Origin: Nitrospira japonica
GTDB taxonomy: Bacteria; Nitrospirota; Thermodesulfovibrionia; Thermodesulfovibrionales; SM23-35
Direction: 5' to 3'
Assembly: GCA_020725385.1 (NCBI GenBank)
Contig: DYFC01000039.1
Coordinates: 1 to 16,076 of the forward strand
Length of the DNA: 16,076 nt
Shown: positions 283 through 15,856 of the stretch, piece by piece
Layout of the letters: every line of letters starts with the position of its first letter
Numbering within the stretch: position 1 is the stretch's first letter
Translations under genes and position numbers: made by a program
The notes under the pieces: generated by a model
Database searches by the model: none
Told to the model about the DNA's origin: nothing
Seen by the model: the letters and a program-made list of their open reading frames with translations, nothing else

Positions 283-330
283 TTTAAGTTTAAAAATTAA
301 ATTTATATAATATCCTATAGGATATTTTAT
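283..330 (+). promoter_or_regulatory. Putative sigma70 promoter of the defence operon with an overlapping palindromic operator
   Basis: TATAAT at 306-311, with a weak -35 (TTTAAG, 283-288) 17 bp upstream. A perfect 18-bp palindrome AATATCCTATAGGATATT (309-326) covers the -10 and the likely start site. Confidence 0.5.
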
Positions 331-349
331 TATTTTATTGATTTTAGTT

Positions 350-3300
350 ATGAAAAATTTTATAACCAACAGTGGAACAGATAATTTAAAAAAACGTTTA
401 TCAGAGCTTATAGAAAATAGCAATGAATTAAAATTTTTAGTTGGTTTTTTCTATTTTTCCGGTTTAAAAGAGCTCTATACCTCTTTAACAAAAAACTCTG
501 ATGTTATTTTAAAAATTCTGGTTGGATTAAATGTAGATAAATTTAACTATCAATTAATAGAGTATGCTGATTTGGAAGACCAAAGCGGGCATTTATCAAA
601 CGAAGAAATATATAATAAATTTTTTGATTCATTAAGGAAATCTATTAACACAGAAAAATTTGATACAGAGGAATTTTACGAACAAATAAAATATTTTATT
701 GAACTGATTAAAAAGGATCGTTTACTAATAAGAAAAACAATCGCCCCAAATCATGCAAAACTATATATTTTTAAATTGCGCAGCGAACAAATAGGTCGAA
801 ACAAATTGTTTATCACTGGTAGTAGCAATCTTACTTGTTCAGGACTTACTACACAGGAAGAATTTAATGTTGAAATATCAGATTATGGTTTTAATGATGC
901 AGAAGAATATTTTGATAACTTATGGGAAAATGCAGTTAGAATTTCAGAAGATGATATTTGTAAAAAAAGATTAATAGGACTTCTTGAAAAAGAAACATTA
1001 ATTAAAGAAATTACTCCATTTGAGGCTTATGTTTTAGCTTTAAAAATTTATCTTGATTCTTTTGAAAGAAAAGGTGATGAAGAGTCAATTCAAAAAATAT
1101 TGCAGGATAGTGGTTATACTCCATATAGATATCAATTAGATGCTATAGAACAGGCATTGGCGATAATTGAGAAAAATAATGGAGTAATTCTTGCTGATGT
1201 GGTAGGTTTGGGCAAAACAGTAATTGCCTGCACTATTGCTAAAAAACTAAAAAAACGAGGTGTAATAATATGCCCGCCGGGAATTATGGGTGACCCAAGA
1301 AAAAAAGATGCTGGCTGGAATATGTATAAAGAGCAATTTGGACTTTACGATTGGGAAGTTTGGTCATTGGGTGATTTAGAAAAACTACAAGAATTTGATA
1401 AAAAATCAAAAGATATTGAAGTTATCATTATTGATGAGGCACATAGATTTAGAAATCAAGATACCAAAAATTACGAATATTTAAAGAACATTTGTAGAAA
1501 TAAACAGGTTATACTTCTTACAGCAACGCCATTCAATAACCGACCTGGAGATATTTTATCATTACTTAAATTATTTATTACACCTAAAAAATCATCTATT
1601 ACCTTAGAAAACAATTTAGTTGATAAATTTAGGACATTTAAAACTACCTTTGACCGACTTGCCTATATAAAAAAGTATTATGATTCAAAAGATCAATCTA
1701 AAAAAGACAAAGCATATTCTAATTATAAAGCTCTTTTTGGCGAAGAATTTATATTGTCTATATCATTAGAGAAAGTTAAACAGCGCTCAAAATATTTAGC
1801 AAAACAAATTCGAGATGTTATTGAACCAGTTACAATTCGTAGAAACAGATTGGATTTACAAAACAATCCATTTTATAAAAATGAAATTAAAAATCTTTCA
1901 AAAATGGCAGATCCAAAGGAATGGTTTTTTGAATTAACTCAAGAACAATCTAAATTTTATGATACTATTCTTACAAAATATTTTGCAGACCCGGATGAAG
2001 GCGGAATGTTTAAAGGAGCGATTTACAGACCTTTTGAATATGAAAAAGAAAGAGTTAAAGAAAATAAATTAACAGAAAAAGAAAATTTTGAATATATCCA
2101 GCAACGAAACCTGTATGATTTTATGCGCAGGTTGTTAGTAAAAAGGTTTGAAAGTTCATTTGGCTCTTTTGAACAAAGTTTAAAAAATTTTCAACATATT
2201 ACAGAATCAGTTCTTGAATTTATTGAAAAAACAGGAAAATATATTCTTGATAGAGAACTTCTTGAAAGAATTTATGACAAAGACATAGATGAAATAGAAA
2301 CATATTTAAAAGAATATAGCAAAAAGATAAAAGAAGGGGTATATCCTAAAAACCACAGGATATATAAACTTTCAGGCTTTAAACATCAAAAAGAATTTAT
2401 TGAAGATATTAATTCTGATTTAAGAATGTTTGAAGAAATTATTAAAACCTTACACAAATTAAATATGGTAGAAAGTGATCCTAAGACCAACTGTTTAATA
2501 GAGAATTTGAAAACACAATTAAAAAAAGAACCGAATAGAAAGATTGTTATTTTTTCTGAATATGTTGATACAGTAAAATATCTTAAACCTCACCTTGAAA
2601 AAACATTTAAAAATAGAGTATTAACTGTAGCTGGTGATTTGTCTGCTACTAAATTAGATACAATTTATAAAAATTTTGACGCATCATATTCAGAGCAAAA
2701 AAATGATTATGATATTTTACTAACTTCAGATAAGCTTTCTGAAGGGTTTAACTTAAATCGTGCTGGAATGATTATAAACTACGATATTCCATGGAACCCT
2801 GTTAGAGTTATTCAACGAGTAGGAAGAATAAACCGTATTAGTAAAAAAGTTTTTGATGAACTTTATATTGTAAACTTTTTTCCGACCGAAAAGGGTTCAG
2901 AATTAGTAAAATCCCGCGAGATTGCTTCAAATAAAATGTTTTTAATTCATAATACATTAGGAGAAGATGCCAAGATATTTGATATTGATGAAGAACCAAC
3001 TCCAGCAAAACTTTATGAAAAAATTCAGCAAAATCCAGACAAATTAGAAGAACAAAGTTTTTATACAAAAGCTTTACAGGATTTCATACAAATAAAAGAA
3101 AAGCATCCTGATTTGATTAAATCATTAGACAAATTCCCACCAAGAATTAAAGTGGCAAAAAAACATAATGAAAATGAACTGCTTGTATTTATTAAAAAAG
3201 GCAGATTGTTTATTCATTATGTTAAATATTCTCAAAACAATGATAAACCCGAGTATTTACAAATACCTTTTGAAGATGCATATAACAAAATTACCTGTCT

Positions 3301-3712
3301 GCCTGATGAAAGACCACTTAAATTAAGCCCAAAATTTTGGGATATGTATGAAAAAATTAAAAACTTAAAGGATTATCATTCAACACATATAAGCGAAAGA
3401 AGTTTAGAACAACAAGCGATTAATAATCTAAAAACATTTCTTACTAACGTATCAGATGAAAGAATCTTTGAACACAAAAATTTTCTAAAAACCTTGCTTG
3501 AAGATATTTTAGATTATGGAACTTTACCTGACTATACCCTACGCCGTATAGCTAATTGGCAATGTGACAATGAAGAAAATATTAAAAAGTCAATAGAGCT
3601 GATTAATCAATTAAAAGAAGAATTAGGTGAAAATTATTTAGAAAAAGAAAAGACAAATCGGAAGGATTTGATTAAGGAAGTAATAGTTGCTATTGAAAAC
3701 CAGAAATTATGA
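350..3712 (+). CDS. PLD-family nuclease fused to an SF2 (SNF2-like) helicase/translocase, about 1120 aa
   Basis: N-terminal PLD motifs VGFFYFSG, HAK (NHAKLYIF) and GSSNLT. Helicase motifs: I LADVVGLGKT, II IIIDEAH, III LLTATP, IV IVIFSEY, V LSEGFNL, then NYDIPWNP and VI QRVGRINR. ATG at 350 preferred over TTG at 338; neither has a clear SD. Confidence 0.92.
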   Translation: MKNFITNSGTDNLKKRLSELIENSNELKFLVGFFYFSGLKELYTSLTKNSDVILKILVGLNVDKFNYQLIEYADLEDQSGHLSNEEIYNKFFDSLRKSINTEKFDTEEFYEQIKYFIELIKKDRLLIRKTIAPNHAKLYIFKLRSEQIGRNKLFITGSSNLTCSGLTTQEEFNVEISDYGFNDAEEYFDNLWENAVRISEDDICKKRLIGLLEKETLIKEITPFEAYVLALKIYLDSFERKGDEESIQKILQDSGYTPYRYQLDAIEQALAIIEKNNGVILADVVGLGKTVIACTIAKKLKKRGVIICPPGIMGDPRKKDAGWNMYKEQFGLYDWEVWSLGDLEKLQEFDKKSKDIEVIIIDEAHRFRNQDTKNYEYLKNICRNKQVILLTATPFNNRPGDILSLLKLFITPKKSSITLENNLVDKFRTFKTTFDRLAYIKKYYDSKDQSKKDKAYSNYKALFGEEFILSISLEKVKQRSKYLAKQIRDVIEPVTIRRNRLDLQNNPFYKNEIKNLSKMADPKEWFFELTQEQSKFYDTILTKYFADPDEGGMFKGAIYRPFEYEKERVKENKLTEKENFEYIQQRNLYDFMRRLLVKRFESSFGSFEQSLKNFQHITESVLEFIEKTGKYILDRELLERIYDKDIDEIETYLKEYSKKIKEGVYPKNHRIYKLSGFKHQKEFIEDINSDLRMFEEIIKTLHKLNMVESDPKTNCLIENLKTQLKKEPNRKIVIFSEYVDTVKYLKPHLEKTFKNRVLTVAGDLSATKLDTIYKNFDASYSEQKNDYDILLTSDKLSEGFNLNRAGMIINYDIPWNPVRVIQRVGRINRISKKVFDELYIVNFFPTEKGSELVKSREIASNKMFLIHNTLGEDAKIFDIDEEPTPAKLYEKIQQNPDKLEEQSFYTKALQDFIQIKEKHPDLIKSLDKFPPRIKVAKKHNENELLVFIKKGRLFIHYVKYSQNNDKPEYLQIPFEDAYNKITCLPDERPLKLSPKFWDMYEKIKNLKDYHSTHISERSLEQQAINNLKTFLTNVSDERIFEHKNFLKTLLEDILDYGTLPDYTLRRIANWQCDNEENIKKSIELINQLKEELGENYLEKEKTNRKDLIKEVIVAIENQKL

Positions 3713-6700
3713 CCTCAAAAGAAATTTTACAATCAATAATAAATAATTTTGAAATTGAAAAATTTAATTTATTTTTCCGTCAAAAAAATAACAAGCTCAG
3801 GTATCCCAATGAACCAATATCTGGCGAAGATAATTTTACAGAAGGTCTAAAATTAGCAGAAGGAATATTTGATGATAGAAACTTTATTGTCTGCTCTTTT
3901 AAAGTAAATAAAGAACTTACTGAACGCTCAGGCAAAAAAGCACAATATATCCTTGGTAAGAAAATACTAAAAGAACAAAATTCAGATGCCGGTATATTTA
4001 TTTTTTACGACCAGCAAGGTAATTTCCGATTTAGTTTAATTTACACAAATTATTTAGGCAAATCTCGTGACTGGAGTAGTTTTAAAAGATTTACCTATTT
4101 TGTAAGCAAAAACATTACAAATAAAACTTTTTTAAGTCAGATCGGTGATGGTGATTTTTCAACTATTGAAAAAATCAAAGAGGCATTTAGTATTGAGCCT
4201 GTAACAAAACAGTTTTATAACGAAATCCAGAACTGGTATTTCTGGGCAATGGATAAAATCAAATTTCCAGATGATTATAAATATAGCAAAGATATCCATA
4301 AGGATAGAGAAATAAGAAACGCAACCAATCTTATCCGTTTAATTACAAGAATTATTTTTATATGGTTTTTAAAAGAAAAAGGATTGGTCCCTACGGATTT
4401 ATTTTCAAAAGACAAATTAGCAAGAGTTGTAAAAGATTTTCTAAAAAACAAAAATTCCAGCAATTTTTATAATGCTATCTTACAAAACCTATTTTTTGCC
4501 ACATTAAATCAAAAAATGAATCAAGACATGAACAAGAGAAAATTTGCAGATGATAGAGGATATCCATATAACAAAAAAGAATATGGAATAAAAAATTTAT
4601 ATCGCTATAAAGATAAATTTCTAATAACTGAAGATGAGGTCTTAAAACTTTTCAAAGATATTCCATTTTTAAATGGTGGATTATTTGATTGTCTTGATAA
4701 AGAAGACGAACATGAAAAAGAAATATACATAGATGGATTTTCAAGGAATGAAAGTAAGGTTGCTATTATACCGGATTACTTATTCTTTCAAGAAAATGAA
4801 GAAAAAATTGACCTATCAATCTATGGACTTGGAAAAGACAAACCTGTCAGAGGTCTTTTTGAGATTCTTAATAGTTATAACTTTACAATTGACGAAAACA
4901 CAATTATTGACCAAGAAATTGCATTAGACCCTGAATTATTGGGAAAAGTATTTGAAAATCTTTTAGCTTCATATAATCCTGAAACTGCTACTACAGCCCG
5001 TAAAGCAACAGGAAGTTATTATACTCCCAGAGAAATTGTTGATTATATGGTAGAAGCAAGCTTATGCGAATATTTAAAAACAAAACTTCCTGAAATCAAT
5101 GAAGAAAAAATAAAACTTCTTTTATCCTATTCAGAAAATATACCAGAATTTTCAGAAGAAGAAAAGCAGAAAATAATTTCAAGTATAGCTGAAATAAAAA
5201 TTCTTGACCCTGCTTGTGGCTCTGGTGCTTTTCCAATGGGAGTTCTTCATAAACTTGTTTTTGCTCTTCAAAAATTAGACCCGGACAATAAATACTGGAA
5301 AGATTTACAACATCAAAAAGCAAGTAAAGAAATTGATGAAGTTCTTAAAATTAGAGATAAAAAAATTAGAGAAGAAAAACTTAAGGAAATAAATGAAGTA
5401 TTTGATGAAAATATTAACTATCCTGATTATGCCCGTAAACTGTATTTGATAGAAAACTGCATATATGGTATAGATATTCAGCCGATAGCAATTCAAATAT
5501 CAAAACTTAGATTTTTTATCTCGCTTGTTTTAGACCAAAAGATTGATAAAAACAAAGAAAACTTTGGTATAAGAGCCCTTCCTAACCTTGAGACAAAATT
5601 TGTTTGTGCAAATACATTGATAAATATTGAAAAACCAGACCATTTATACTATACAGATAAAATAAAAAGTCTGGAAGAAGAAATAAAATTACTTAGACAT
5701 AAATATTTTCAAGCTAAAACGCGAACGGAAAAACTCAAGTTTCAAGAAAAAGACAAAAAATTAAGAGAAGATTTATCAAAAGAATTAAAATCTATTGGCT
5801 ATTCAGCTGAAGCTTCAGAAAAAATTGCAAAGTTTGACATATTTGACCAAAATGCCTCAGCTGACTGGTTTGATCCGGAATGGATGTTTGGGATAAAAGA
5901 TGGATTTGATATAGTTATTGGAAACCCGCCATATATTAAAGAAGGAACTTTTAGAAATGCTTTTGATGGATTAAGAGACTCGCCTTATTATAAGGGAAAA
6001 ATGGATATTTGGCATTTTTTTGCCTGTATAGGGATAGATTTATTAAAAAAGAATTCAGGGTTACTTACTTTCATAGCTCAAAACAACTGGACTACAAATT
6101 ATGGTGCATCAATAATGAGAAATAAAGTTATAAAAGATTCACAAATAATTCAGATGCTTGACTTTGGAAGTTATATGATTTTTGAAAATGCAGATATTCA
6201 AACAATGGTAATGATTTTTAAATCAGATTCAGAAGTTGACAATTATATATTTGATTATAGAAAGTTGGAGGGAAATAATTTGAACTTTAAGGATGTATTA
6301 GATTTGTTAAATTGTAATCCAAACTCAAAAATAATTTATCTCAAACCAATTATTCAAAGAAACAAATATATGGATAAACTCTTAACTTTTAGTAATACAA
6401 CAATTGATTTAATATTAGATAAAATTCTCAAACAGAGCAATTTTAAACTTATTGAAAAGGAACTAACCCAAGGAATAGTCATGCCACAAGATTATGTTAT
6501 TAAAAGTCACTTAAAAAAACTACCGAATCTTTCTATCGGAGATGGCATTTTTGTTTTAAGTAATGAAGAAAAAAACAATATTCCCTTTACCCTAAAAGAA
6601 CTGGAATTAATAAAACCATTATATACCACAAAAGAACTCAGGAAATATTATGCAAACAAAAAGAATTCTGAATGGGTAATATATACTGATTCAAAATTCA

Positions 6701-7260
6701 AATATCCTGAAAATATAAAGCCATATCCAAATATTAAAAAACATCTTGATAAATTTCAAAAAGTTATCACTTCTGATAACAAACCATATGGTTTACATAG
6801 AGCAAGAGATGAATATTTTTTCAAGGGAGAAAAGATAATTGCTGTTCGTAAATGCATAGAACCTACCTTTACATATACAGATTTTGATTGCTATGTTTCA
6901 GCAGCTTTTTATGTTATAAAAACAACAAGAATAAACTTAAAGTATCTAATAGCATTATTAAATTCAAAATTGATTGCCTTCTGGTTAAAACACAAAGGTA
7001 AAATGCAGGGCAATAACTACCAGATTGACAAAGAACCACTTTTAGCATTGCCATTGAAAAGCATTCCCGACAAAGAACAAAGACCTTTTATTGACCTCAT
7101 AGATAAAATTCTTGCAATAACCAAAGATGAAGATTATCTAACTAATTCAGAAAAACAATCAAAAGTCAAAGGATATGAACACCAAATTGACCAATTAGTT
7201 TATCAACTCTACGACCTCACTGAAGAAGAAATAAAGATAATAAGAAATACTATAATATAA
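3709..7260 (+). CDS. Eco57I/Type IIG-like N6-adenine DNA methyltransferase with a C-terminal target-recognition domain, 1183 aa
   Basis: LNGGLF, LGKVFENLL, GSYYTPREIVDYM, motif I ILDPACGSGAF, YGIDI and motif IV VIGNPPY (gamma order). TaqI-C-like tail (YLIALLNSKL...IDQLVYQLYDLTEEEI). ATGA overlap with the upstream stop. Confidence 0.92.
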   Translation: MTSKEILQSIINNFEIEKFNLFFRQKNNKLRYPNEPISGEDNFTEGLKLAEGIFDDRNFIVCSFKVNKELTERSGKKAQYILGKKILKEQNSDAGIFIFYDQQGNFRFSLIYTNYLGKSRDWSSFKRFTYFVSKNITNKTFLSQIGDGDFSTIEKIKEAFSIEPVTKQFYNEIQNWYFWAMDKIKFPDDYKYSKDIHKDREIRNATNLIRLITRIIFIWFLKEKGLVPTDLFSKDKLARVVKDFLKNKNSSNFYNAILQNLFFATLNQKMNQDMNKRKFADDRGYPYNKKEYGIKNLYRYKDKFLITEDEVLKLFKDIPFLNGGLFDCLDKEDEHEKEIYIDGFSRNESKVAIIPDYLFFQENEEKIDLSIYGLGKDKPVRGLFEILNSYNFTIDENTIIDQEIALDPELLGKVFENLLASYNPETATTARKATGSYYTPREIVDYMVEASLCEYLKTKLPEINEEKIKLLLSYSENIPEFSEEEKQKIISSIAEIKILDPACGSGAFPMGVLHKLVFALQKLDPDNKYWKDLQHQKASKEIDEVLKIRDKKIREEKLKEINEVFDENINYPDYARKLYLIENCIYGIDIQPIAIQISKLRFFISLVLDQKIDKNKENFGIRALPNLETKFVCANTLINIEKPDHLYYTDKIKSLEEEIKLLRHKYFQAKTRTEKLKFQEKDKKLREDLSKELKSIGYSAEASEKIAKFDIFDQNASADWFDPEWMFGIKDGFDIVIGNPPYIKEGTFRNAFDGLRDSPYYKGKMDIWHFFACIGIDLLKKNSGLLTFIAQNNWTTNYGASIMRNKVIKDSQIIQMLDFGSYMIFENADIQTMVMIFKSDSEVDNYIFDYRKLEGNNLNFKDVLDLLNCNPNSKIIYLKPIIQRNKYMDKLLTFSNTTIDLILDKILKQSNFKLIEKELTQGIVMPQDYVIKSHLKKLPNLSIGDGIFVLSNEEKNNIPFTLKELELIKPLYTTKELRKYYANKKNSEWVIYTDSKFKYPENIKPYPNIKKHLDKFQKVITSDNKPYGLHRARDEYFFKGEKIIAVRKCIEPTFTYTDFDCYVSAAFYVIKTTRINLKYLIALLNSKLIAFWLKHKGKMQGNNYQIDKEPLLALPLKSIPDKEQRPFIDLIDKILAITKDEDYLTNSEKQSKVKGYEHQIDQLVYQLYDLTEEEIKIIRNTII

Positions 7261-7275
7261 GTAGAGGGTAGTGTT

Positions 7276-8955
7276 ATGCTAACAAAGATTTCAATAAAAA
7301 ATTTTAAAAAACTTACAGCGGATATAGATTTATCACAAACAGTTATATTTGTTGGACCAAATAATTCAGGCAAGACATCCGCTTTACAGGCGATTGCTTT
7401 ATGGGATTTAGGTATTCGTAAATGGATAGAAGTAAAAAAAGACTCAAAAGCCAAGCAACGCAGAGGAGTACCTATAAATAGAAAAGATATCCTATCTATT
7501 CCAATATCTTCTGCAAGATATTTATGGAAAGATTTACATGTGCAAGAAGTAATCAAAAAAGATGGGAAATTATGCAGTAAAAAAATAAAAATTGAAATAT
7601 CTGCTGAAGGATGGACAACACAAAAAAACTGGAAACTGCCCATGGAATTTGATTATTCAGGCACAGAGGTTTTGTATTGTCGTTTAATGGATGATGAAGC
7701 AAACAAATTTTTGGAAATAGTTTCAAATGAGAAGATAGCCTTTCTTCCTCCAATGTCAGGTCTTGTGGCAAGAGAAGATATGCTTGTGCAAGGAACAATA
7801 TATTCCAGAATAGGTGAAGGACGCACTGCTGAAGTTTTGCGAAACCTTTGCTGGATAGTATATAACGAAACAGAAAATTGGCTTAAATTAAAAGAAATTA
7901 TAAAAAATCTTTTTTTTGTAGATATTGGTGAACCTGAGTTTGATAAAGTTTCAGGTATAATCAATATGACTTATGAAGAGAAAGGCAAAAAATATGACTT
8001 GTCTAACGCTGGGCGGGGATTTCATCAAATTTTGCTTCTTTTTGCATTTATATTTGCAAGTAAAAGGACTATTCTTTTGATTGATGAGCCTGATGCTCAT
8101 TTGGAGGTTATTCGTCAAAAGGAAGTTTTCAATTTACTGTCTAAATCACTTAAAGAACAAAATTCTCAGTTAATTATAGCAACTCATTCCGAAGCGGTTC
8201 TTAATGAAGCAGCAGAAAAAGATAGAATTATTGCTTTTATTGGTAAACCACATATATTGAACAACAAAGCCCAATTAGTGAAATCTCTTGCCAATATTGG
8301 ATATGACCAGTATGTTCAAGCGGAACAAAAAAAGTGGGTTCTGTATTTGGAAGGTTCTACAGATTTACAGATATTACAAGCATTTGCCAAAGTGTTAAAT
8401 CATCCTGTTGAAAAATATTTACAAAATCCTTTTGTTAAATATGTTACAAACAGGCCTATAGATGCTCGAAGCCATTTTTACGGGCTACGAGAAGCATTTC
8501 CTGAATTTAAAGGAGTTGCAATATTTGATAGGTTAGATAAAAACCAAATTCAAATTGCTGAAGGTTTAACAGAGTTATCATGGAATCGCTATGAAATAGA
8601 AAATTACATTCCCATTCCCGAAACTATAGAACGTTTTTTTTCATTACCTCCTGAAACTTTGTTTGAATTTCTTGATAAGGACACAATAAACAAGATAATA
8701 CAAAGTGAAATCCCATCTGCCGCTTTAGATAACAAAACACATACTTGGTGGATTGATACTAAGATGAGTGAGTTCTTAGATAGAGTTTTCACTCAGTATT
8801 GTGAGATAAAAAAAGTACCAGTATGTCTTAATAAAAGCGATTATTATCGTTTAGTACTACTTGCTAAACCAGAAGAAATAGACAAAGAAGTTAAAGAAAA
8901 ATTGGATGGTATTTATAAAGTGGTGCCAACATCTAAAGAGTTAGAACTAGAATAG
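7276..8955 (+). CDS. ABC-type (AAA_15/AAA_21-like) ATPase fused to a TOPRIM-like domain; OLD/PARIS-like ATP-dependent nuclease, 559 aa
   Basis: IKNFK, Walker A GPNNSGKT, signature-like LSNAGRG, Walker B/D-loop LLIDEPDAHL, H-loop IIATHS. The C-terminal half has LYLEGSTD, IFDRLD and YEIENY. SD GAGGG at 7264-7268. Confidence 0.85.
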   Translation: MLTKISIKNFKKLTADIDLSQTVIFVGPNNSGKTSALQAIALWDLGIRKWIEVKKDSKAKQRRGVPINRKDILSIPISSARYLWKDLHVQEVIKKDGKLCSKKIKIEISAEGWTTQKNWKLPMEFDYSGTEVLYCRLMDDEANKFLEIVSNEKIAFLPPMSGLVAREDMLVQGTIYSRIGEGRTAEVLRNLCWIVYNETENWLKLKEIIKNLFFVDIGEPEFDKVSGIINMTYEEKGKKYDLSNAGRGFHQILLLFAFIFASKRTILLIDEPDAHLEVIRQKEVFNLLSKSLKEQNSQLIIATHSEAVLNEAAEKDRIIAFIGKPHILNNKAQLVKSLANIGYDQYVQAEQKKWVLYLEGSTDLQILQAFAKVLNHPVEKYLQNPFVKYVTNRPIDARSHFYGLREAFPEFKGVAIFDRLDKNQIQIAEGLTELSWNRYEIENYIPIPETIERFFSLPPETLFEFLDKDTINKIIQSEIPSAALDNKTHTWWIDTKMSEFLDRVFTQYCEIKKVPVCLNKSDYYRLVLLAKPEEIDKEVKEKLDGIYKVVPTSKELELE

Positions 8956-9090
8956 ATAAGTGTAGAGTATTTTTAGTGTCCCTGCAAATTCTAATTAACC
9001 ATTTACTTTATAAATTATAAAAATTAAACAAAGGGGAAATAATCATCATATTAAGGGGAATTCTTAAATGAATTTACAGACTGTATTACA

Positions 9091-9202
9091 GTTGTTGTTA
9101 TTCCCCAAATTTAAGGGAAAGGGGGCTTTTATTTTTTACCCTTTCCAGACCACTTACCTTTCACTTATATTTAATATTTTACACACTTTATTATACATAA
9201 CC
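9091..9202 (-). mobile_element. Remnant IS256-family-like end (probably a left end, IRL) without a transposase
   Basis: 9178-9202 matches 13-37 at 18/25 ungapped positions, keeping both TTTACACAC and ACATnACC. On the - strand it reads GGTTATGTATAATAAAGTGTGTAAAA. The inner boundary (9091) is a guess. Confidence 0.55.
9116..9146. terminator. Stem-loop between the convergent blocks; possible terminator or part of an IS leader
   Basis: GGAAAGGG (9116-9123) and CCCTTTCC (9139-9146) form an 8-bp stem with a 15-nt loop. There is no clean U-tract next to it. Confidence 0.3.
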
Positions 9203-9215
9203 AGCGTTTTATCGT

Positions 9216-11192
9216 TTAGAAAATACAGGAAGTTTTAATCCCGAAAATTCGCCCGGGGGACATGTCGGTAGAGCTTTCCTGATATCTTTTATCGAATATA
9301 TTGTTTACATATAAAGAAATTTCAAAATAGTCTTTCGGCAAGAATTTGATATCCGCGGAATAAACAGAATAAGAAGGTATTTTTTGGGTATTTAAGTCGT
9401 CCGAAAATTGGGAGGATTTATAAACGGAGGAAAAGCCGAAAACCATTTTCCCGAAATTTAAATTCAAATAAGTGCTTATTATTTCGTTGGGAGAATAAGA
9501 AATCTCTTTCCCTTCTATCGCCGCATTATTTTTATACTCGAGAATTTCGGATTTTGAATAAGAGTAGTTCAAAATAAAAGACAGGAACCCGTCGGAATAT
9601 TTAAACGGAATTTCATATCCGTATATTTTGGTCTTCGCTATATTTTCCTTTCTATAAATCGGTTTTATTCCGTTTATATTTATCGTTCTTTGAGTGTTAA
9701 CCTCGTATATAAAATCCTTGCCCAGATCGTAATAAACGGCGGGATCCAAATAAAAACCGTTCAAAAAAGAAAATTCCAGACCGGTTTCAAAAGATCCGAT
9801 CTTTTCCGGTTTTAAATATGGGTTTGCTTCGGTAAATTTATTTCCTCTCAACAGGCTTAAACACATATCTTCTATTACCGGAGCTCTAAACGAAGTGCCG
9901 TATGAAAAATAATGTTTTAAACCTTCGGAATATTTCTTTGAAATATAAACTTTATAGGATAAAAAATCCCAATCGCTTTCTTTAAGCGGACCGTTAACTC
10001 CGGGGACTACTATAGAATCGTTTGAATAATATCCGTCATAAAAACCGGCCTTATCGTATCTTAATCCCGCTATTAAAGAAAAATCTTTTATTTCAAATTT
10101 GGAATTATAATAAGCAGAATAGGAATAAACATCTCCTCTGTTATAGGAATTAGAAACCGAAGGAGAGGACTGGAAATCGTTCGAATTAACGAGAGACTTA
10201 GCGATCTCCGCTCCGAATACGTTTTGAATTCCGAATTTTTTAAAAAGGACCGAAGATCTCAATCCTGAATCCTCCCTTACCGAATCGGTCTCTATTTTCG
10301 TATATTTATTGCTTTTAAAATATTCGTTCAATCTGCCGTATTTCTGATTATTATAATAAATCAATGTTTCAAATCGGGTATCATTCTTATCGTAATTCCA
10401 TTTTAAGGACATATTATTGTCGTTAAAAGTTCTATTTGTTCCGTTTGCCGTATTTATTTTAATTCCTTCCCCTCTTATACCGTCGTAATAAGAGTATCTT
10501 AAATCGAAATTACCGAAAGAGGTTTTCAAAACATTTCTGAATAAAAGATTTTTTTCATCCGCAAATTTTTTAACAGTATAATCGGTAATATCCTCCGGGG
10601 GAGTTGAAACATAGCCGTCGCTTTTAAGATAGCCGATGGAAAATAAAAAAGAATTTTTTTCGCCTTTGCGAGATGCGGTAATGTTAGAGCCGAAAGTATC
10701 GTATGTTTGGTATAAAGCCGAAATTTTGGTTTTATCCTCCGGTTTTTTCGTTACTATGTTTATAACCCCGGTAACCGAGTTCGAGCCGTATACAAAAGAT
10801 GAAGCTCCTTTAAAAATTTCTATTCTTTCCACATCCAGCATCGAAACCATATTCCAGTTAACCGAACCGGTCGCTTTATTGTTTAAAGGAACACCGTCCA
10901 ATAAAACGAGCGTTCTGGCCTGCTCGTAAGAGGAGTATCCCCTCATACTTAAAACCGATTTAAACGAATAAATTCCGTTGGTCCTTGAAACGTTTATTCC
11001 GCTTATTATTCTGGAAATCTTTTCTTCGAGAGTGGAGCCCGAAACATCTTTCAAATCTTCTTTTGTAATCACAATAGTATCCTCATATAAATTGGAAGAA
11101 GAAAGGTTTAAATTCTTTTCAATTGAAAATTTAACCTCGGAAGTATAAGAATCGACAGAGAAAATAAGACAAAATATCAAACAAAAAATCAT
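9216..11192 (-). CDS. TonB-dependent outer-membrane receptor (BtuB/CirA-like), 658 aa
   Basis: Hydrophobic N-terminus. Plug motifs LVLLDGVPLN and DVERIEIFKGASSFVYGSNSVTGVINIVTK. Barrel motifs AGLRYD, SFRAP, NPYLKPE, NNIFDKRY and PGR, with a C-terminal Phe. Confidence 0.93.
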   Translation of the reverse strand: MIFCLIFCLIFSVDSYTSEVKFSIEKNLNLSSSNLYEDTIVITKEDLKDVSGSTLEEKISRIISGINVSRTNGIYSFKSVLSMRGYSSYEQARTLVLLDGVPLNNKATGSVNWNMVSMLDVERIEIFKGASSFVYGSNSVTGVINIVTKKPEDKTKISALYQTYDTFGSNITASRKGEKNSFLFSIGYLKSDGYVSTPPEDITDYTVKKFADEKNLLFRNVLKTSFGNFDLRYSYYDGIRGEGIKINTANGTNRTFNDNNMSLKWNYDKNDTRFETLIYYNNQKYGRLNEYFKSNKYTKIETDSVREDSGLRSSVLFKKFGIQNVFGAEIAKSLVNSNDFQSSPSVSNSYNRGDVYSYSAYYNSKFEIKDFSLIAGLRYDKAGFYDGYYSNDSIVVPGVNGPLKESDWDFLSYKVYISKKYSEGLKHYFSYGTSFRAPVIEDMCLSLLRGNKFTEANPYLKPEKIGSFETGLEFSFLNGFYLDPAVYYDLGKDFIYEVNTQRTININGIKPIYRKENIAKTKIYGYEIPFKYSDGFLSFILNYSYSKSEILEYKNNAAIEGKEISYSPNEIISTYLNLNFGKMVFGFSSVYKSSQFSDDLNTQKIPSYSVYSADIKFLPKDYFEISLYVNNIFDKRYQESSTDMSPGRIFGIKTSCIF

Positions 11193-11217
11193 AACATATT
11201 TATTATACTTTTTTTGA

Positions 11218-12951
11218 CTAAAACAATAACTTAAGCGACTGAGAAAATATAAAAGTAAAAATAAGAGAAATTAAAAGATTAAAAACAATAACGTAAAAGG
11301 TAATTTTTTTCCCCAGTTCTTTTAAAAGAACGAATATTGAAGCCAAACACGGCATATAAGTAACGAGAAAAAAACAGGAAACCATTATTTCTTTAAGAGA
11401 AAGATTAAAAGGAGCAAGCAAAGTTATAGCTACGTCTTTTTTTAAAAAACCTAACATTACTATCGACGAAGTTTGGGCGGGAAGAGAAAAAATTTTATTT
11501 AAAACGGGAGCAAAATATTTAGATAAAAGATCCAGTATGGAGAAAATATCTAAAATATTTATGAGCAATATCCCACCCATTACAAAAGGAACGGCGTCCA
11601 AAAGAAATTGAGTTATCCTTAATCTCATTTTAAAAACCAAATTTTTAAAAACCGGTTTGTGATAAGGGGGTATCTCTATGAAAAGATCGTCCGACGTTCC
11701 TTTCAACATCTTGTTTAAAACATAAGAAGCCAATATGCCTACAAAAAATATATAAACAAAAACTATACCGGTGTATATCAAGGGATATTTTGAAAGTATG
11801 GCGAATATCATCGCGCTTTGAGGCATACATGGAGAAATCAAAAAAAGAAGAGAGGCCGCTATTATTTTTTCTCTGTTAGACTCTAAAATTCGCAAAGAAA
11901 ATATCCCCGGAACCTTGCATCCCAATCCCATTATCAAAGGTATGCTGCCGTAGCCGTGAAGACCTATTTTATGAGACAATCTGTCCAATATCACGGCTAA
12001 CCGAGGAAGATATCCTATGTCTTCCAGAACGCTTAATATCAAATAAAAGGCGAAAACATAAGGCAAAACTACCACGAAAGAAACATAAATTCCGGTAGTA
12101 AGAACGGAAAAACCTTCAAGCGGAGTCATATTTTTCGAGAAAATAATATTTTTTAAAAATCCTTCGTTAAAAAAAGACGAAAACCTATCGACAAGCGGCA
12201 TATAATAATTATTAAACAAAGGATCAAAAACGTAATTTATTATTCCCTCTCCTATAAATCTTATGACATAAAAACTTATAATTATCAAGACAAAAGCTAA
12301 AGGAATCGCCGTTACCGGAGTTGTAGTTATCTCCTCCAATCTTTCCAAAAAAGACGGATGTTTATGATAAATCTTTTGAACTTTTAAAGTTATTTCTCCT
12401 ATCATTTTCCATTTCTCCGTTATATCGGAAGGAATTTCTATTTTTGGAACCGGAAGTTTAAAGTTATTAAAAACCGCCGAAACCTCCCTTTCCAAAACGC
12501 TAAATCCTATACCGGCGGTGGCCACAACCGGAAATATTTTTATATCCAGAATATCGGATAAATTATCGTAATCTATGTCTATACCTTTATTTTTAGCTAT
12601 ATCTGTTTTTGTGGCTATTATAACGATAGGTTTTCGCAAGGCCAACAACTCCAAAGTTAAAAGCAAATTCCTTTCTAAATTATTTGAGTCTATTACATTA
12701 AATATTATGTCGTAATCCTTCGATTTTATTATCTCCGAAGCCACTTTTTCGGCGACGCTTTCCCCTTCCAGGCTATAACATCCGGGAACATCCACAACCT
12801 CGCATTCATTATTGCAAAGCCTGGTTTTTCCTTTCAGTATATCCACCGTCGTTCCCGGATAGTTTGAGGATATGGCGGTATAACCAGTAAGATAAGAAAA
12901 AACGACGCTTTTCCCTACGTTTGGATTTCCAACCAATACTATTTTCATCAT
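11218..12951 (-). CDS. feoB: Ferrous iron transport protein B (short form, 577 aa)
   Basis: G1 GNPNVGKS, G2 NYPGTT, G3 DVPG, NLERNL, G4 TKTD. Membrane motifs LEDIGYLPRLA, GLGCKVP, FIEIPPY and YMPCLA. ATGA overlap with the feoA stop. Confidence 0.95.
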   Translation of the reverse strand: MMKIVLVGNPNVGKSVVFSYLTGYTAISSNYPGTTVDILKGKTRLCNNECEVVDVPGCYSLEGESVAEKVASEIIKSKDYDIIFNVIDSNNLERNLLLTLELLALRKPIVIIATKTDIAKNKGIDIDYDNLSDILDIKIFPVVATAGIGFSVLEREVSAVFNNFKLPVPKIEIPSDITEKWKMIGEITLKVQKIYHKHPSFLERLEEITTTPVTAIPLAFVLIIISFYVIRFIGEGIINYVFDPLFNNYYMPLVDRFSSFFNEGFLKNIIFSKNMTPLEGFSVLTTGIYVSFVVVLPYVFAFYLILSVLEDIGYLPRLAVILDRLSHKIGLHGYGSIPLIMGLGCKVPGIFSLRILESNREKIIAASLLFLISPCMPQSAMIFAILSKYPLIYTGIVFVYIFFVGILASYVLNKMLKGTSDDLFIEIPPYHKPVFKNLVFKMRLRITQFLLDAVPFVMGGILLINILDIFSILDLLSKYFAPVLNKIFSLPAQTSSIVMLGFLKKDVAITLLAPFNLSLKEIMVSCFFLVTYMPCLASIFVLLKELGKKITFYVIVFNLLISLIFTFIFSQSLKLLF

Positions 12952-13172
12952 ACTTCCTCTACTATTATTTTTTCGGCCATTCCCCTGCCTATCGCAAGCT
13001 GCGAATTCATAACTTTGACTATTACCGGACCGTGATTATAAGACGCAATTTTTTCTATTAAAGACCCGTCGAATATTCCCATAGAATTAAGTTTTTTTAA
13101 TATATTATGCCCTCCGTTTATCTGGACAACTTTTAATTTTTTATTATTTGCTTTTGCAAGATTTGTTTTCAT
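12948..13172 (-). CDS. feoA: FeoA family SH3-like protein, 74 aa
   Basis: KKLNSMGIFDG, GPVIVKV and LAIGRGMAEKIIVE. Lies directly upstream of feoB, with SD GAGG. Confidence 0.93.
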   Translation of the reverse strand: MKTNLAKANNKKLKVVQINGGHNILKKLNSMGIFDGSLIEKIASYNHGPVIVKVMNSQLAIGRGMAEKIIVEEV

Positions 13173-13590
13173 TTTTCCTCTTTTTGATAAAATCCTTAAT
13201 CTTTTTTATCTCAGAAGGGTTGGAATTAAAATAATCTATTATATACGAAATATCTTTCGAATTTTTATGGATTATATGCTCGATGTAACAAGCGTACCTG
13301 TTAGAATCGAAGTCGCTTATATCGAACATTTTTAACAATCTCACAAGCATATTGTGAATCGTTAAAATACTTTCCGCCAAAATCTTACCCTTAGACGTAA
13401 GTCTTATGTATCCGTATTTTTGATGAGTTAAAAAACCTCTTTTATCGAGCTCCTTAACCGCTTTATTTACGGCAGGAAGTTTAACATTCAGGAAATCGGC
13501 TATTTCTTTTATCCGCGAAAATCCGTTCTTTTTTTCAAATATATACGCCGCTTCTATATAATCTTCAAGACTGCTGGATAATCTATTCAT
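13144..13590 (-). CDS. DtxR/MntR-family metal-dependent transcriptional regulator lacking the C-terminal SH3/FeoA domain, 148 aa
   Basis: LEDYIEAAY, wHTH RIKEIADFLNVKLPAVNKAVKEL, YGYIRLTSKG and ACYIEH. Confidence 0.92.
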   Translation of the reverse strand: MNRLSSSLEDYIEAAYIFEKKNGFSRIKEIADFLNVKLPAVNKAVKELDKRGFLTHQKYGYIRLTSKGKILAESILTIHNMLVRLLKMFDISDFDSNRYACYIEHIIHKNSKDISYIIDYFNSNPSEIKKIKDFIKKRKNENKSCKSK

Positions 13591-13622
13591 AAACTTAACT
13601 TAGGTTAACTTTATTAACCTAA
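13591..13622. promoter_or_regulatory. DtxR-family operator-like array upstream of the regulator-feoAB-receptor operon
   Basis: TTAGGTTAA (13600-13608), a 5-bp spacer, then TTAACCTAA (13614-13622). An imperfect palindrome AAACTTAACTTAGGTTAACTTT (13591-13612) overlaps it. Half-sites resemble the DtxR box TTAGGTTAGCCTAACCTAA. Confidence 0.75.
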
Positions 13623-13626
13623 TATA

Positions 13627-13655
13627 ATTTTATTATATTTTTTAATCCCGGTCAA
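13627..13655 (-). promoter_or_regulatory. Sigma70 promoter for the regulator-feoA-feoB-TonB receptor operon
   Basis: On the - strand: TTGACC (13655-13650), 17 bp, TAAAAT (13632-13627). The predicted start site falls on the operator. Confidence 0.7.
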
Positions 13656-13676
13656 ATCGAAAACATCTTAAATATT

Positions 13677-15842
13677 TTATATTTTAACTTTTAAGAGTCT
13701 TATGGAATTCAAAACCACCGAAACGCTGCTTAATCCCATAGCCAGCGCAGCCATATAAGGCTTTATGAAGAAACCGTTTATATGATAAAGAACCCCGGCG
13801 GAAAGCGGTATAAGGACTATATTATAAGAAAAAGCCCAGAAAAGATTTTGATTTATTATCTTTTTTACGTTATCGCTAAGCCTTATGACTTTAAAAACCG
13901 CCGATATGTCGTCGGTTAAAAGAACCATATCGCTTACCGTAGAAGTAACCTCTTTGGAGGTTTTCATAGATATGCCTATATCCGCTTCGTTTATAGCGGC
14001 CGAGTCGTTTATTCCGTCTCCTATCATCATAACCTTCTTTCCGTCCATTTTATATTTCAAAACGACGCTTTGTTTTTCATCGGGCTTTAGTTCAAAGTAA
14101 TATTCTTCTATGCCAAGCAAATTCGCCGTTTCTTTAACCACTTCTCTTCTGTCTCCGCTAATTATAACCGGCTTTATATTAAGTTCGACAAATTTTTTTA
14201 TTACTTCTTTCGCGTTTTTTCTCAAAGAGTCGGCAAAAACGGCATAACCCAGATACTTATCGTTTAAAGCGAGAAGCACGCAAGGATATTTATTGTTATT
14301 TATTTCGTCCTTATGGACCGAAAAATCTATCGAGTTTTTATTAAAAAAATAAGGGCTTCCCGCTTTTATTTTTCCCGCCTCGCTATCGCATTCCACTCCT
14401 TCGCCGGCATAACTTTTAAAGCCGAATATTTTATATGTTTTTATATCCTTAGATTCGCAATATCTCTTTATCGAATCGGCAAAAAGATGTTCGGAGTTAT
14501 GCTCGGCGGTCAGCAGAATTTTAAGAAATTCCATTTCTTCAACCTTAAATGGTTTTATTTTCGAAAGATTCATATTTCCTTCGGTCAAGGTGCCGGTTTT
14601 ATCCAACAAAACCGCATCCACTTTGGAAAAATTTTCAAGGACAGACGGATTATTTATAACAAAACCCAATTTAATAGCTCTTGAAAGGCCTACCATAACG
14701 GCTATAGGAACGCTAAGCCCCATGGCGCAGGGGCAGGAAACCGCAAGCACCGCGGCAAAAACATTTACTCCCATATCCTTATCCACAGGATACCATAAAG
14801 CGCCGGAGAGAAAAGCTATAAAAACAACCGTCGGAACGAAATATCTGGCTATTTTATCCACTTTTTTTTGAATATTAAGCTTTACGCTTTGCGCGTCTGA
14901 AATGGCGTTTATTAATTTGGCTATCATGGTATCTTCGCCCACATTGACGCTTTTAATTTTAACCGCTCCGGAATTGTTTATTGAACCGGAATATATGAAA
15001 TCCCCCTTTTTTTTAAATACGGGAATGCTTTCGCCGGTTATTTGACGCAAATCGAAATAAGATGACCCCTCCTCTATTATCCCGTCTACCGCAGCTTCCA
15101 TGCCTGGCTTTAACGATATGATATCTCCTTTTTTTATTTCAACGACTTTTATCTCTCTTTCTTTTCCGTTTTCCACTTTAATTGCTGTTTTGGGGAAAAA
15201 AGAAGCGATTTTTTTTATGTTTCTTGAAACGTCGTATTTTGTTTTAGATTCGAAATATTTCCCTAAATTTATAAACGCTATCAGCATAGATATCTCGTGC
15301 CAGTGGAAAAAACGATTATGTGAAGCGTAAAAAGCGGAGTAAGAAATGTATGCCAGCATAACCGTAGAAGACAAACTTACGAGAGTATTCATATCCGCGG
15401 TAAAATTCTTGAGAGAATAGTAAAAACCTTTATGGAAATGCCATCCGCAATAAATCCATACGAAAAAAGATAAAATGAAAGCCGTATAATCGGAAACCGA
15501 AGGAACCGCAATCAAAAACAAAGCCGCAATTCCAGAAAGGACAAATTTTATGTAATACTTTTTTTCTTCCTCCGCGAAAGATTCCCCGAGCTCGCTTATA
15601 CTCCCCCCCGTTTCGTAGACACTTCCCGGAGTATATCCTACCGATCTTATGGCGGCTTTTATTTGATCCAAACCGATATAATCCGAATCGTATTTTACGA
15701 CAACCATTTTCGTAACCACATGTACGTTTACGGAAAAAACACCGTTCATTTTTTTAAGATAATTTTCTATATTAAAAGCGCAGTTTGAACAAGATATGTC
15801 TTTTACTTCCAAAACGACTCTTTTAATTTTTTTTTCATTCAT
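13677..15842 (-). CDS. copA: Copper-translocating P1B-1 type ATPase, about 721 aa
   Basis: N-terminal HMA domain with SCSNC, then ITGES, CPC, DKTGTLT, GDGIND, and the YN and MxxSS motifs of the Cu+ subtype. ATG at 15842 follows SD GGGAG, so it is preferred over TTG at 15854. Confidence 0.92.
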   Translation of the reverse strand: MNEKKIKRVVLEVKDISCSNCAFNIENYLKKMNGVFSVNVHVVTKMVVVKYDSDYIGLDQIKAAIRSVGYTPGSVYETGGSISELGESFAEEEKKYYIKFVLSGIAALFLIAVPSVSDYTAFILSFFVWIYCGWHFHKGFYYSLKNFTADMNTLVSLSSTVMLAYISYSAFYASHNRFFHWHEISMLIAFINLGKYFESKTKYDVSRNIKKIASFFPKTAIKVENGKEREIKVVEIKKGDIISLKPGMEAAVDGIIEEGSSYFDLRQITGESIPVFKKKGDFIYSGSINNSGAVKIKSVNVGEDTMIAKLINAISDAQSVKLNIQKKVDKIARYFVPTVVFIAFLSGALWYPVDKDMGVNVFAAVLAVSCPCAMGLSVPIAVMVGLSRAIKLGFVINNPSVLENFSKVDAVLLDKTGTLTEGNMNLSKIKPFKVEEMEFLKILLTAEHNSEHLFADSIKRYCESKDIKTYKIFGFKSYAGEGVECDSEAGKIKAGSPYFFNKNSIDFSVHKDEINNNKYPCVLLALNDKYLGYAVFADSLRKNAKEVIKKFVELNIKPVIISGDRREVVKETANLLGIEEYYFELKPDEKQSVVLKYKMDGKKVMMIGDGINDSAAINEADIGISMKTSKEVTSTVSDMVLLTDDISAVFKVIRLSDNVKKIINQNLFWAFSYNIVLIPLSAGVLYHINGFFIKPYMAALAMGLSSVSVVLNSIRLLKVKI

Positions 15843-15856
15843 ATACACTCCCAAAG

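Follow-up and report, generated by a model that had tools for sequence, protein, structure and literature searches.

Background

In Type ISP restriction-modification (RM) enzymes such as LlaGI and LlaBIII, a nuclease, an SF2 motor, a gamma-class N6-adenine (N6A) methylase and a target recognition domain (TRD) follow one another in a single polypeptide, and in Type III enzymes such as EcoP15I the motor-nuclease subunit depends on a methylase/recognition subunit and cleavage needs two sites. The present analysis concerns three co-oriented genes, referred to as genes 1, 2 and 3, which encode a PLD-SNF2 protein, an N6A DNA methyltransferase and a predicted OLD-type ABC ATPase-Toprim protein on a 16,076-bp contig (C36; DYFC01000039.1) of a Nitrospira japonica genome that has 2.46 Mb and is 96.6% complete. 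The entire contig was analysed and is called the window. An initial annotation had proposed that the three genes form one candidate anti-phage system in which gene 3 is an ATP-gated nuclease effector. The three-gene block is instead a new representative of kinds already known: judged from the sequences compared, the likeliest reading is that genes 1 and 2 make up a widespread two-gene RM-like defence pair and that gene 3 is a separate mobile gene behind it.

By analogy, the nearest studied relative of the pair in its logic is MANTIS (MtsA-D; also Gao_RL, the Type-2 DUF499-centred BREX-related systems). As in the window, MANTIS combines an adenine methyltransferase with a protein in which an N-terminal HKD/PLD domain is fused to an SF2 ATPase, and a second ATPase gene lies in the operon; the PLD-SF2 protein dimerises into one PLD site, and unmethylated DNA is restricted in an ATPase-dependent manner. 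The structure of MtsD is described as a PLD-SF2 dimer with one PLD site, the methylase is described as requiring, besides the DUF499 ATPase, a small co-regulator to which the introduction of that report gives the name DUF3870, and inverted site pairs are said to be preferred (10.64898/2026.09.23.753747).

The predicted architecture of gene 3, an ABC ATPase with a C-terminal Toprim domain, is that of the OLD class 1 and 2 proteins, merged PARIS (AriAB), GajA and HEC-04, and like HEC-04 and PARIS-like modules it is found inside or behind a methylation-based defence locus; it differs from Gabija in having no UvrD partner and from AriA/AriB in being a single chain rather than split. OLD-ABC/Toprim modules have been described as backup effectors around BREX and BREX-related (BR) systems in at least 1242 taxa (PMC12839542), such genes embedded in BREX-related and Hma loci are presented in the same role (PMC12839542, 10.1101/2024.01.29.577857), and HEC-04, an ABC ATPase-Toprim fusion embedded in Hma, is reported to have been validated experimentally (10.1101/2024.01.29.577857).

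The pair itself was described in passing in 2018 and 2023, which agrees with the statement of the initial annotation that helicase-methyltransferase pairs exist in other genomes. The same pair, encoded by orf33 and orf34 of Lactococcus lactis pLd8, was predicted to be an RM system in which the PLD of the neighbour was proposed to cut, and its methylase is labelled Type IIG by REBASE although it is without a restriction domain (PMC6098607). Cj0031-like methylases are described as adjoining coding sequences with PLD and SNF domains (PMC9881135). On Synechocystis pSYSX, slr6050 encodes M.Ssp6803IV, to which GA(m6A)GGC was tentatively assigned and whose mutant would not segregate (PMC6105098); the failed segregation would fit an active partner nuclease. 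The pLd8, Cj0031-like and pSYSX pairs have the same two domain architectures, gene order and motifs as the window pair. They differ from it in being distant, and in the accounts cited none is shown to restrict and none is reported with an OLD-type third gene. On pSYSX (L175:13697-21130), genes 1 and 2 have distant homologues in the helicase-related gene and slr6050, respectively, at 22-28% identity (E values of 1e-32 and 6e-26 for the helicase-related gene against gene 1, and 2e-24 for slr6050 against gene 2). A small gene and a VapC toxin gene (a VapC toxin pair) stand between the two, and passenger genes are likewise found at many pair loci. The names given to the pair by the Prokaryotic Genome Annotation Pipeline (PGAP) are only 'helicase-related protein' and 'N-6 DNA methylase', and defence catalogues see a 'Type IIG' enzyme only.

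Conservation of the gene 1-gene 2 pair and linkage of gene 3

Gene 1 was searched for in 401 genomes sampled from the same phylum, and matches at E ≤ 1e-20 were found in 86 of them; 40 loci with flanks were taken. A gene-2 homologue was detected by tblastn directly downstream of gene 1 in 32 of the 40 loci, and at the other eight at most about 3.1 kb of contig was left after gene 1. Genes 1 and 2 are a strongly conserved pair.

When homologues of each gene were collected, genes 1 and 2 stayed neighbours whereas gene 3 did not. Sequence of 2 kb or more follows the methyltransferase gene at 22 pair loci, and a gene-3 homologue was present at only one of these (L069); it has 31% identity and is not adjacent to the pair, from which it is separated by about 4.2 kb and by genes on the opposite strand. 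The closest pair locus (L053; 82% and 58% identity by tblastn) has no gene-3 homologue. In the reverse direction, 40 relatives of the genome yielded one true gene-3 orthologue, standing without large neighbours, and 12 further genome loci with gene-3 relatives of 28-40% identity were collected with patterns built from a single protein; neither gene 1 nor gene 2 was found near the gene-3 relative at any of these 13 loci (within 10 kb on either side where the contig allows). Of 80 metagenome loci with gene-3 relatives of 40-60% identity, only one (L154) has homologues of both gene 1 and gene 2. In the metagenome set an intact gene-3 open reading frame (ORF) was present at 78 loci, 36 of which extend for 4 kb or more upstream. 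As a partner of the pair gene 3 is not conserved, and its homologues show no consistent linkage to it (1/22, 0/13 and 1/80), so that the single three-gene system first proposed, with gene 3 as its conserved effector, was not upheld. The useful result is a negative one, namely that gene 3 should not be counted in a new three-gene system.

The pair hosts interchangeable, unrelated passenger genes, as Type I operons are known to do. Between the two members of the pair were found, at other loci, Fic (four loci, one cluster), RhuM-Fic, a 23S-rRNA-IVP protein, MNT/HepT pairs, a Schlafen/AlbA_2 protein, an NYN RNase, a SocA-HTH protein and an extra methylase, while the methylase gene was followed elsewhere by SIR2 (two loci), a KAP NTPase, a UvrD helicase, an AAA_15 ATPase, DUF3800, FRG-TPR and an M78-HTH pair. 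PrrC in EcoprrI is cited as a Type I passenger (10.1101/2024.01.29.577857).

The gene-1 family includes more than 120 protein clusters that are 66-83% identical over the full length. Such identity across phyla points to recent and frequent horizontal transfer of gene 1. The cluster names span Elusimicrobiota, Kapaibacterium, Caldisericia, Patescibacteria, TA06 and others. Gene 1 was also seen in decayed form, once in three pieces with in-frame TGA stops (L066; G312:C32) and once split into ORFs of 243 and 825 amino acids (aa) (L064; G286:C27).

Domain content of genes 1 and 2

Gene 1 (350-3712, + strand) has 1120 aa counted from the ATG at 350, the ORF lister starting at TTG 338, and encodes a single-HKD PLD nuclease fused to a SNF2-type SF2 ATPase (Pfam PLDc_2, SNF2-rel_dom, ResIII and Helicase_C). 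The PLD (HKD) nuclease domain lies at 692..925 on the + strand (aa 115-192; PLDc_2, 1.2e-7) and the SNF2/SF2 ATPase core at 1118..2839 on the + strand (about aa 257-830); the C-terminal region of roughly 250 aa gave no Pfam family match, and no modified-base reader domain was recognisable by Pfam in the protein. The motifs HAK...GSSN, GLGKT, DEAH, TATP and QRVGRINR are found in the translation, and H135/K137, GSSN157-160, GLGK286-289, D362/E363/H365, TATP and Q822..R829 are invariant in all 25 aligned members of the gene-1 family. The best PADLOC matches were DrmD (5e-35), BrxH and 'HKD+Snf2', all weak for a protein of such size; the PADLOC name 'C3a139 HKD+Snf2' reportedly goes back, according to a search listing, to a publication about genes accessory to type III CRISPR systems. 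In the PDB sequence search gene 1 gave only generic SNF2 matches, the best solved relative being the Sulfolobus SNF2/Rad54 helicase 1z63 (3.7e-13). Because there is one HKD motif per chain, the active site would be expected to need a dimer, by analogy with MtsD and with Nuc, BfiI and SauUSI, single-HKD enzymes that dimerise to form the active site.

Gene 2 (3709-7260, + strand; 1183 aa) encodes an Eco57I/PglX-like gamma-class N6A DNA methyltransferase (Pfam Eco57I, 2.2e-31; TaqI_C, 2.1e-8; N6_Mtase). The catalytic region lies at 4930..6183 on the + strand (aa 408-825), with DPACGSGAF (motif I; aa 500-508) before NPPY (motif IV; aa 739-742), which is the gamma order, and the TaqI_C-type TRD lies at 6709..7056 on the + strand (aa 1001-1116); the class and the C-terminal TRD assigned at first to this protein are borne out by the motif order and by Pfam. 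Both motifs are invariant in all 25 aligned gene-2 family members, and the TRD is the least conserved part of the family, with few conserved columns after aa 830. Together with the motifs of genes 1 and 3, these alignments bear out the earlier impression that the catalytic motifs are intact.

The N-terminal 424 aa of gene 2 gave no significant Pfam match. In the 25-member alignment this region keeps the PglX/MmeI-like motifs IPFLNGGLF, YNFT..E and G.YYTP, and no invariant or nearly invariant acidic residue was found before E396. Since there is neither a Pfam nuclease match nor a conserved acidic residue before E396, gene 2 probably lacks an active nuclease of its own. The best PADLOC match was REase_MTase_IIG (4e-71), covering mainly the methylase and TRD parts (731-1180 and 381-517), and the PDB sequence search gave nothing. 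Complex prediction for gene-2 residues 1-480 with gene-1 residues 870-1120, from 25-row alignments, scored 0.00, which is evidence neither for nor against binding. Genes 1 and 2 do look like the RM-like core proposed by the initial annotation, in that a methyltransferase/TRD protein apparently without a nuclease is paired with a SNF2 motor protein that bears the sole nuclease.

Gene 3 and the contexts of its relatives

Gene 3 (7276-8955, + strand; 559 aa) appears, from fold matching, to encode an ABC ATPase that is a divergent member of the OLD family and ends in a Toprim-like part. The N-terminal OLD/AriA-like ABC ATPase (7276..8286, + strand; aa 1-337) has the Walker A motif GPNNSGKT and the Walker B motif LLIDEPDAH, and the C-terminal part (8287..8955, + strand; aa 338-559) is predicted to be a divergent Toprim-like nuclease domain with a helical tail. 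Pfam recognised the ABC-type ATPase alone (AAA_15, AAA_21 and SMC_N), the best PADLOC matches of the ATPase half were AriA (1.6e-26) and NsnB (5.5e-25), and the PDB sequence search gave only generic ABC matches. The C-terminal 221-222 aa matched no Pfam family at E ≤ 1 and no PADLOC family at E ≤ 0.1, including PF20469, PF14491 and AriB/Old. An Atlas look-up gave DUF4435 and OLD-like_TOPRIM clusters, taken as a lead only.

The motifs GPNNSGKT, DEPDAH and YLEGSTD are found in the translation. G27..K33 and D270-H275 are invariant in all 33 gene-3 members, and in the C-terminal part (33 members; 60 C-terminal domains) E359, D418, E440 and E442 never vary, G360 and D363 being almost invariant, which gives the conserved pattern E359-G-x-x-D363, D418, E440/E442-N-Y. 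The AlphaFold model of the whole protein (pLDDT, or predicted local distance difference test, of 84.5) had OLD 6p74 as its best fold match (2e-13), followed by PtuA and GajA, with SMC heads also matching. The model of aa 338-559, built from a 60-row alignment, had a pLDDT of 93.7, and its top five PDB matches were Toprim-containing C-terminal regions of Xanthomonas and Burkholderia OLD proteins (E values of 5e-4 to 3e-3 and probability of at least 0.99, with template modelling scores of only 0.39-0.48); AriB matched after OLD, with lower confidence. The label 'ABC-ATPase-TOPRIM' used by the initial annotation can therefore be kept for a divergent OLD-family member on the strength of fold matches and invariant residues, and not of Pfam or PADLOC.

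The gene-3 family is probably mobile, lodging beside or inside varied methylation-based defence operons and also among housekeeping genes. In a scan of 35 co-oriented upstream neighbours within 150 nt and 33 downstream neighbours of gene-3 relatives, the upstream neighbours matched N6_N4_Mtase (four), N6_Mtase (two), ResIII (two), Eco57I (one) and DUF3780 (one), the Eco57I match and one N6_Mtase match being the same protein, at L154; the downstream neighbours matched ResIII (four, one of them a full HsdR), DUF1156 (two) and N6_N4_Mtase (one). At L099:5998-14886, a gene-3 relative of 47% identity stands between an HsdM/HsdS fusion and hsdR with overlapping ORFs, the layout known for PrrC in EcoprrI. 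The order Mod, gene-3-like, Res was found at L019 and, by BLAST clustering with annotated members, at L120 and L129. At L162:3562-12660 and L124:1-5775, the gene-3 relative is placed directly upstream of a DUF1156 methylase gene of BREX-related type. L162 also has a 194-aa gene upstream (probably the DUF3780 match) and a SNF2-like helicase further downstream, in a BREX-related/MANTIS-like operon. At L018:8127-11656 (Paracoccaceae), a distant relative (28%) directly follows a JAB+ThiF (Cap2/Cap3-like) gene, yet another kind of defence setting.

Many gene-3 relatives adjoin SecA, CTP synthase, ribonucleotide reductase and similar housekeeping genes, and an RM-like neighbour was counted at about 12 of the 78 metagenome loci, in part from BLAST clusters. 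The spread of the family among housekeeping genes and RM-like operons agrees with the published idea of embedded backup effectors, and gene 3 is one more OLD-type effector lodged in a restriction operon, a theme already published.

Comparison with named systems

No hallmark genes of named systems were found. The own genome was searched with profiles, and matches of the same profiles among 14 genomes served as control. DUF1998/MZB (PF09369; DrmB), PglZ (PF08665) and the DUF499 AAA+ ATPase (PF04465; MtsA/HmaC) gave no match in the own genome, the controls matching in 8, 2 and 2 of the 14 genomes, respectively. DUF3780 (PF12635; MtsB) likewise gave no match in the own genome, but its control matched in no genome; by hmmscan the model matched one neighbour of a gene-3 relative. 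The HmaB models PDLC00660 and PDLC00661 gave no match in the own genome, the HEC-01B model PDLC04186 gave no match, and HmaA matched gene 1 only at 4.6e-22, below DrmD. Every NCBIfam match was far below its cut-off, including NF038317 (DrmD; 149.5 bits against 610), NF038318 (89.4 against 950) and the PglX model NF033452 (91.1 against 500). The window has no UvrD gene (GajB).

Class 1 DISARM resembles the window in that PLD, SNF2 and N6A-methylase parts are present, gene 1 having its best family matches to DrmD and gene 2 weak ones to DrmMI; it differs in that the window pair is without DrmA and DrmB and has the PLD fused to the helicase. DISARM was rejected on the DrmD score, far below cut-off, and on the missing DUF1998/MZB, and BREX on the missing PglZ and the PglX model below cut-off. 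MANTIS/Gao_RL/BR type 2 was rejected since no DUF499 was found in the genome and the methylase is of another family, Eco57I/PglX-type instead of DUF1156-type; the HmaB models do not match, and the extra ATPase of the window is an OLD-type ABC-Toprim protein that is not conserved with the pair, whereas MtsA is a DUF499 protein. Hma/BR type 1 was rejected on the absence of DUF499 and of an HmaB match in the genome, and Gabija on the absence of a UvrD-type helicase gene in the window.

The pair resembles Type ISP enzymes in the order nuclease, SF2 motor, gamma N6A methylase and TRD, here split at the motor/methylase junction, and resembles Type III enzymes in that a motor-nuclease subunit would depend on a methylase/recognition subunit, with a two-site requirement expected. 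It differs from both in that its nuclease is a PLD and not PD-(D/E)XK and its motor is SNF2-like. Type ISP was rejected since the pair is two polypeptides from ORFs with an ATGA overlap instead of one polypeptide, and has a PLD in place of an Mrr-like nuclease. Type III was rejected since gene 2 is an Eco57I/N6_Mtase gamma-class methylase with its own TRD and not a beta-class Mod, and since the nuclease of gene 1 is an N-terminal PLD and not a C-terminal PD-(D/E)XK. Type IIG was rejected on gene-2 residues 1-424, which have no family match and no conserved acidic residue before E396. The initial annotation had likewise set the layout apart from Type I, classical Type III, full DISARM and BREX, and these distinctions stand; in the tests for DISARM, BREX, MANTIS and Hma the three genes did not map to any one named system.

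Gene organisation and composition

The arrangement first noted, three co-oriented genes with a 4-bp overlap and a 15-bp gap, agrees with the coordinates and the junction letters. At the gene 1/gene 2 junction (AAATTATGACC), the ATG of gene 2 (3709) and the TGA of gene 1 (3710-3712) form an ATGA overlap, and exactly 15 nt (GTAGAGGGTAGTGTT), with GAGGG within, separate the TAA of gene 2 from the ATG of gene 3. A terminator scan gave six terminator-like sites compared with 3.5 +/- 2.1 in shuffles, none of them between genes 2 and 3.

The GC content at third codon positions (GC3) is 0.175, 0.202 and 0.218 in genes 1, 2 and 3 and 0.33-0.38 in four neighbours; the genome has a GC content of 0.347, and only 0.6% of its 3-kb windows have a GC content of 0.285 or less. 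The entire three-gene block is compositionally foreign.

Proposed mechanism and alternative explanations

We consider it probable that the block consists of two stacked, horizontally acquired and probably co-transcribed modules, an RM-like pair and an autonomous OLD/PARIS-type gene 3. All of the biochemistry beyond domain content and gene linkage is what we infer. Genes 1 and 2 would form a two-protein ATP-dependent RM-like system, a split Type-ISP-like or Type-III-like enzyme. With its single TaqI_C TRD, gene 2 would recognise a site that is short and probably asymmetric and methylate one adenine, thereby marking self DNA; at an unmodified site it would recruit or license gene 1, whose SNF2 motor would move along the DNA. 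Two single-HKD gene-1 chains would then meet to build the PLD active site, and cutting would favour two sites or converging complexes, which are probably needed because each chain has one HKD motif; such a model resembles Type ISP, Type III and MANTIS. Gene 3 would be an independent second-line effector acting on its own trigger, possibly infection or anti-restriction factors, and not an obligate third subunit. The pair is very widespread, yet it has been misread in methylome and defence surveys, and a bench test would supply a name and a mechanism.

Several points weigh against this two-module reading. Genes 1-3 are probably one transcript, because they share a low GC3, GAGGG lies in the 15-bp gap and no terminator-like site was found between genes 2 and 3, and they may have arrived together; the foreign composition of all three is compatible with joint arrival and counts against a purely accidental juxtaposition. 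The gene order of the window recurs once, at the very divergent locus L154, where a helicase gene, two small genes, a methylase gene and a gene-3-like gene follow one another, with 24%, 38% and 42% identity for the homologues of genes 1, 2 and 3. Other ABC-type ATPases lie just downstream of the pair at two of the 22 loci (an AAA_15 ATPase at L076 and a weak 45-bit match at L083), and the pair may have some functional affinity for ABC ATPases. The gene-1 census covers one phylum, the gene-3 scans are pattern-limited, many contigs are short, and the context counts leave out the closest gene-3 relatives (56-77% identity), whose contigs were too short or not covered. The Synechocystis relative is distant from the window pair, with a specificity that is only tentatively assigned, and in the literature searched, supplementary tables excepted, neither a name for the pair nor a biochemical or genetic test of its family was found.

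The alternative that survives best, which we nevertheless regard as improbable, is that gene 3 is latched to the pair as a guard, as PrrC is in EcoprrI or as in PARIS/Ocr, and unleashes its Toprim nuclease once restriction has been disabled by a phage; it would be silenced by the intact methyltransferase/helicase complex or would sense inhibitors of that complex. RM-like operons of at least four kinds have gene-3 relatives nested in them, the ORFs overlapping or almost abutting, namely Type I (L099), Type III (L019, L120 and L129), DUF1156/DUF3780 BREX-related (L162 and L124) and, in the window and at L154, the PLD-SNF2 pair; the best PADLOC matches of the gene-3 ATPase are AriA models, and the idea has been put forward for related families (10.1101/2024.01.29.577857, PMC12839542). 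However, most gene-3 relatives adjoin no RM gene (about 12 of 78 do) and several are flanked by housekeeping genes, so the gene-3 protein must work without a specific RM partner, and embedding can also come from defence islands acting as insertion sinks. It is doubtful that the family is a general 'restriction guard' plugged into Type I, Type III, BREX-related/MANTIS-like and PLD-SNF2/methylase systems, and just as tentative is the proposal that such a guard fires when a weak point common to these systems is hit by phage anti-restriction proteins, for instance DNA mimics. If a guard role applied, immunity from the window operon would be layered, and a two-protein split Type-ISP-like enzyme would make up the first layer.

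It is clearly less probable still that the three genes form an obligate three-component system in which genes 1 and 2 need gene 3 for restriction or methylation, be it as an ATP-gated effector dedicated to them or as an MtsA/BrxC-like loader. The tight gene spacing, the common aberrant composition and the recurrence of the triad at L154 would fit such a system, and MANTIS is reported to show that a second ATPase can be required for methylation in a related architecture (10.64898/2026.09.23.753747). Against it, the pair occurs without gene 3 at 21 of the 22 evaluable loci, including the closest relative, gene-3 relatives accompany the pair at 0 of 13 loci in genomes and 1 of 80 in metagenomes, and gene 3 is predicted to be an OLD-type ABC ATPase, not a DUF499/ORC-clade AAA+ protein like MtsA. 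Least credible of all is a self-contained Type IIG enzyme encoded by gene 2 beside an unrelated Type IV-like or SauUSI-like helicase-nuclease encoded by gene 1, for although the best PADLOC matches of gene 2 are REase_MTase_IIG models, REBASE labels the L. lactis homologue Type IIG (PMC6098607) and SauUSI-like PLD-helicases are described as acting alone (10.64898/2026.09.23.753747), those models match mainly the methylase/TRD part, the N-terminus of gene 2 is without a nuclease family match or a conserved acidic residue before 396, gene 1 is without a recognisable modified-base reader domain, and the two genes are adjacent at 32 of 40 loci, here with an ATGA-type overlap.

Upstream region and surroundings of the block

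One promoter with a palindrome had been placed ahead of the three genes; the palindrome was confirmed and the promoter was not. Upstream of gene 1, a TATAAT (306-311) is overlapped by a perfect palindrome of 18 nt (309-326), which is enclosed in an imperfect inverted repeat at 285..350 (no strand), with 33-nt arms that are 73% complementary. In a consensus promoter scan of this AT-rich DNA, 40 promoter-like sites were found compared with 51.1 +/- 7.0 in shuffles, which is no excess. It is possible, from the sequence pattern, that the inverted repeat/TATAAT region is a candidate operator/promoter of gene 1, a plausible but putative function.

The contig starts 349 nt upstream of gene 1, and no tRNA or integrase marking an island was seen on it. 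Downstream, on the - strand, lies a metal/iron homeostasis cluster (9216-15854) with a TonB-dependent receptor (Plug and barrel), FeoB, an iron-dependent repressor of the DtxR type and a heavy-metal P-type ATPase carrying an HMA domain. The cluster has normal genome composition, so that the defence block abuts core-like genes. In the convergent intergenic region between them (8956-9215; 260 nt), the scan gave no terminator-like hairpin on the + strand, and repeated purine-rich motifs were seen (GGGGAAA, AAGGGGAA and AAGGGAAAGGGGG).

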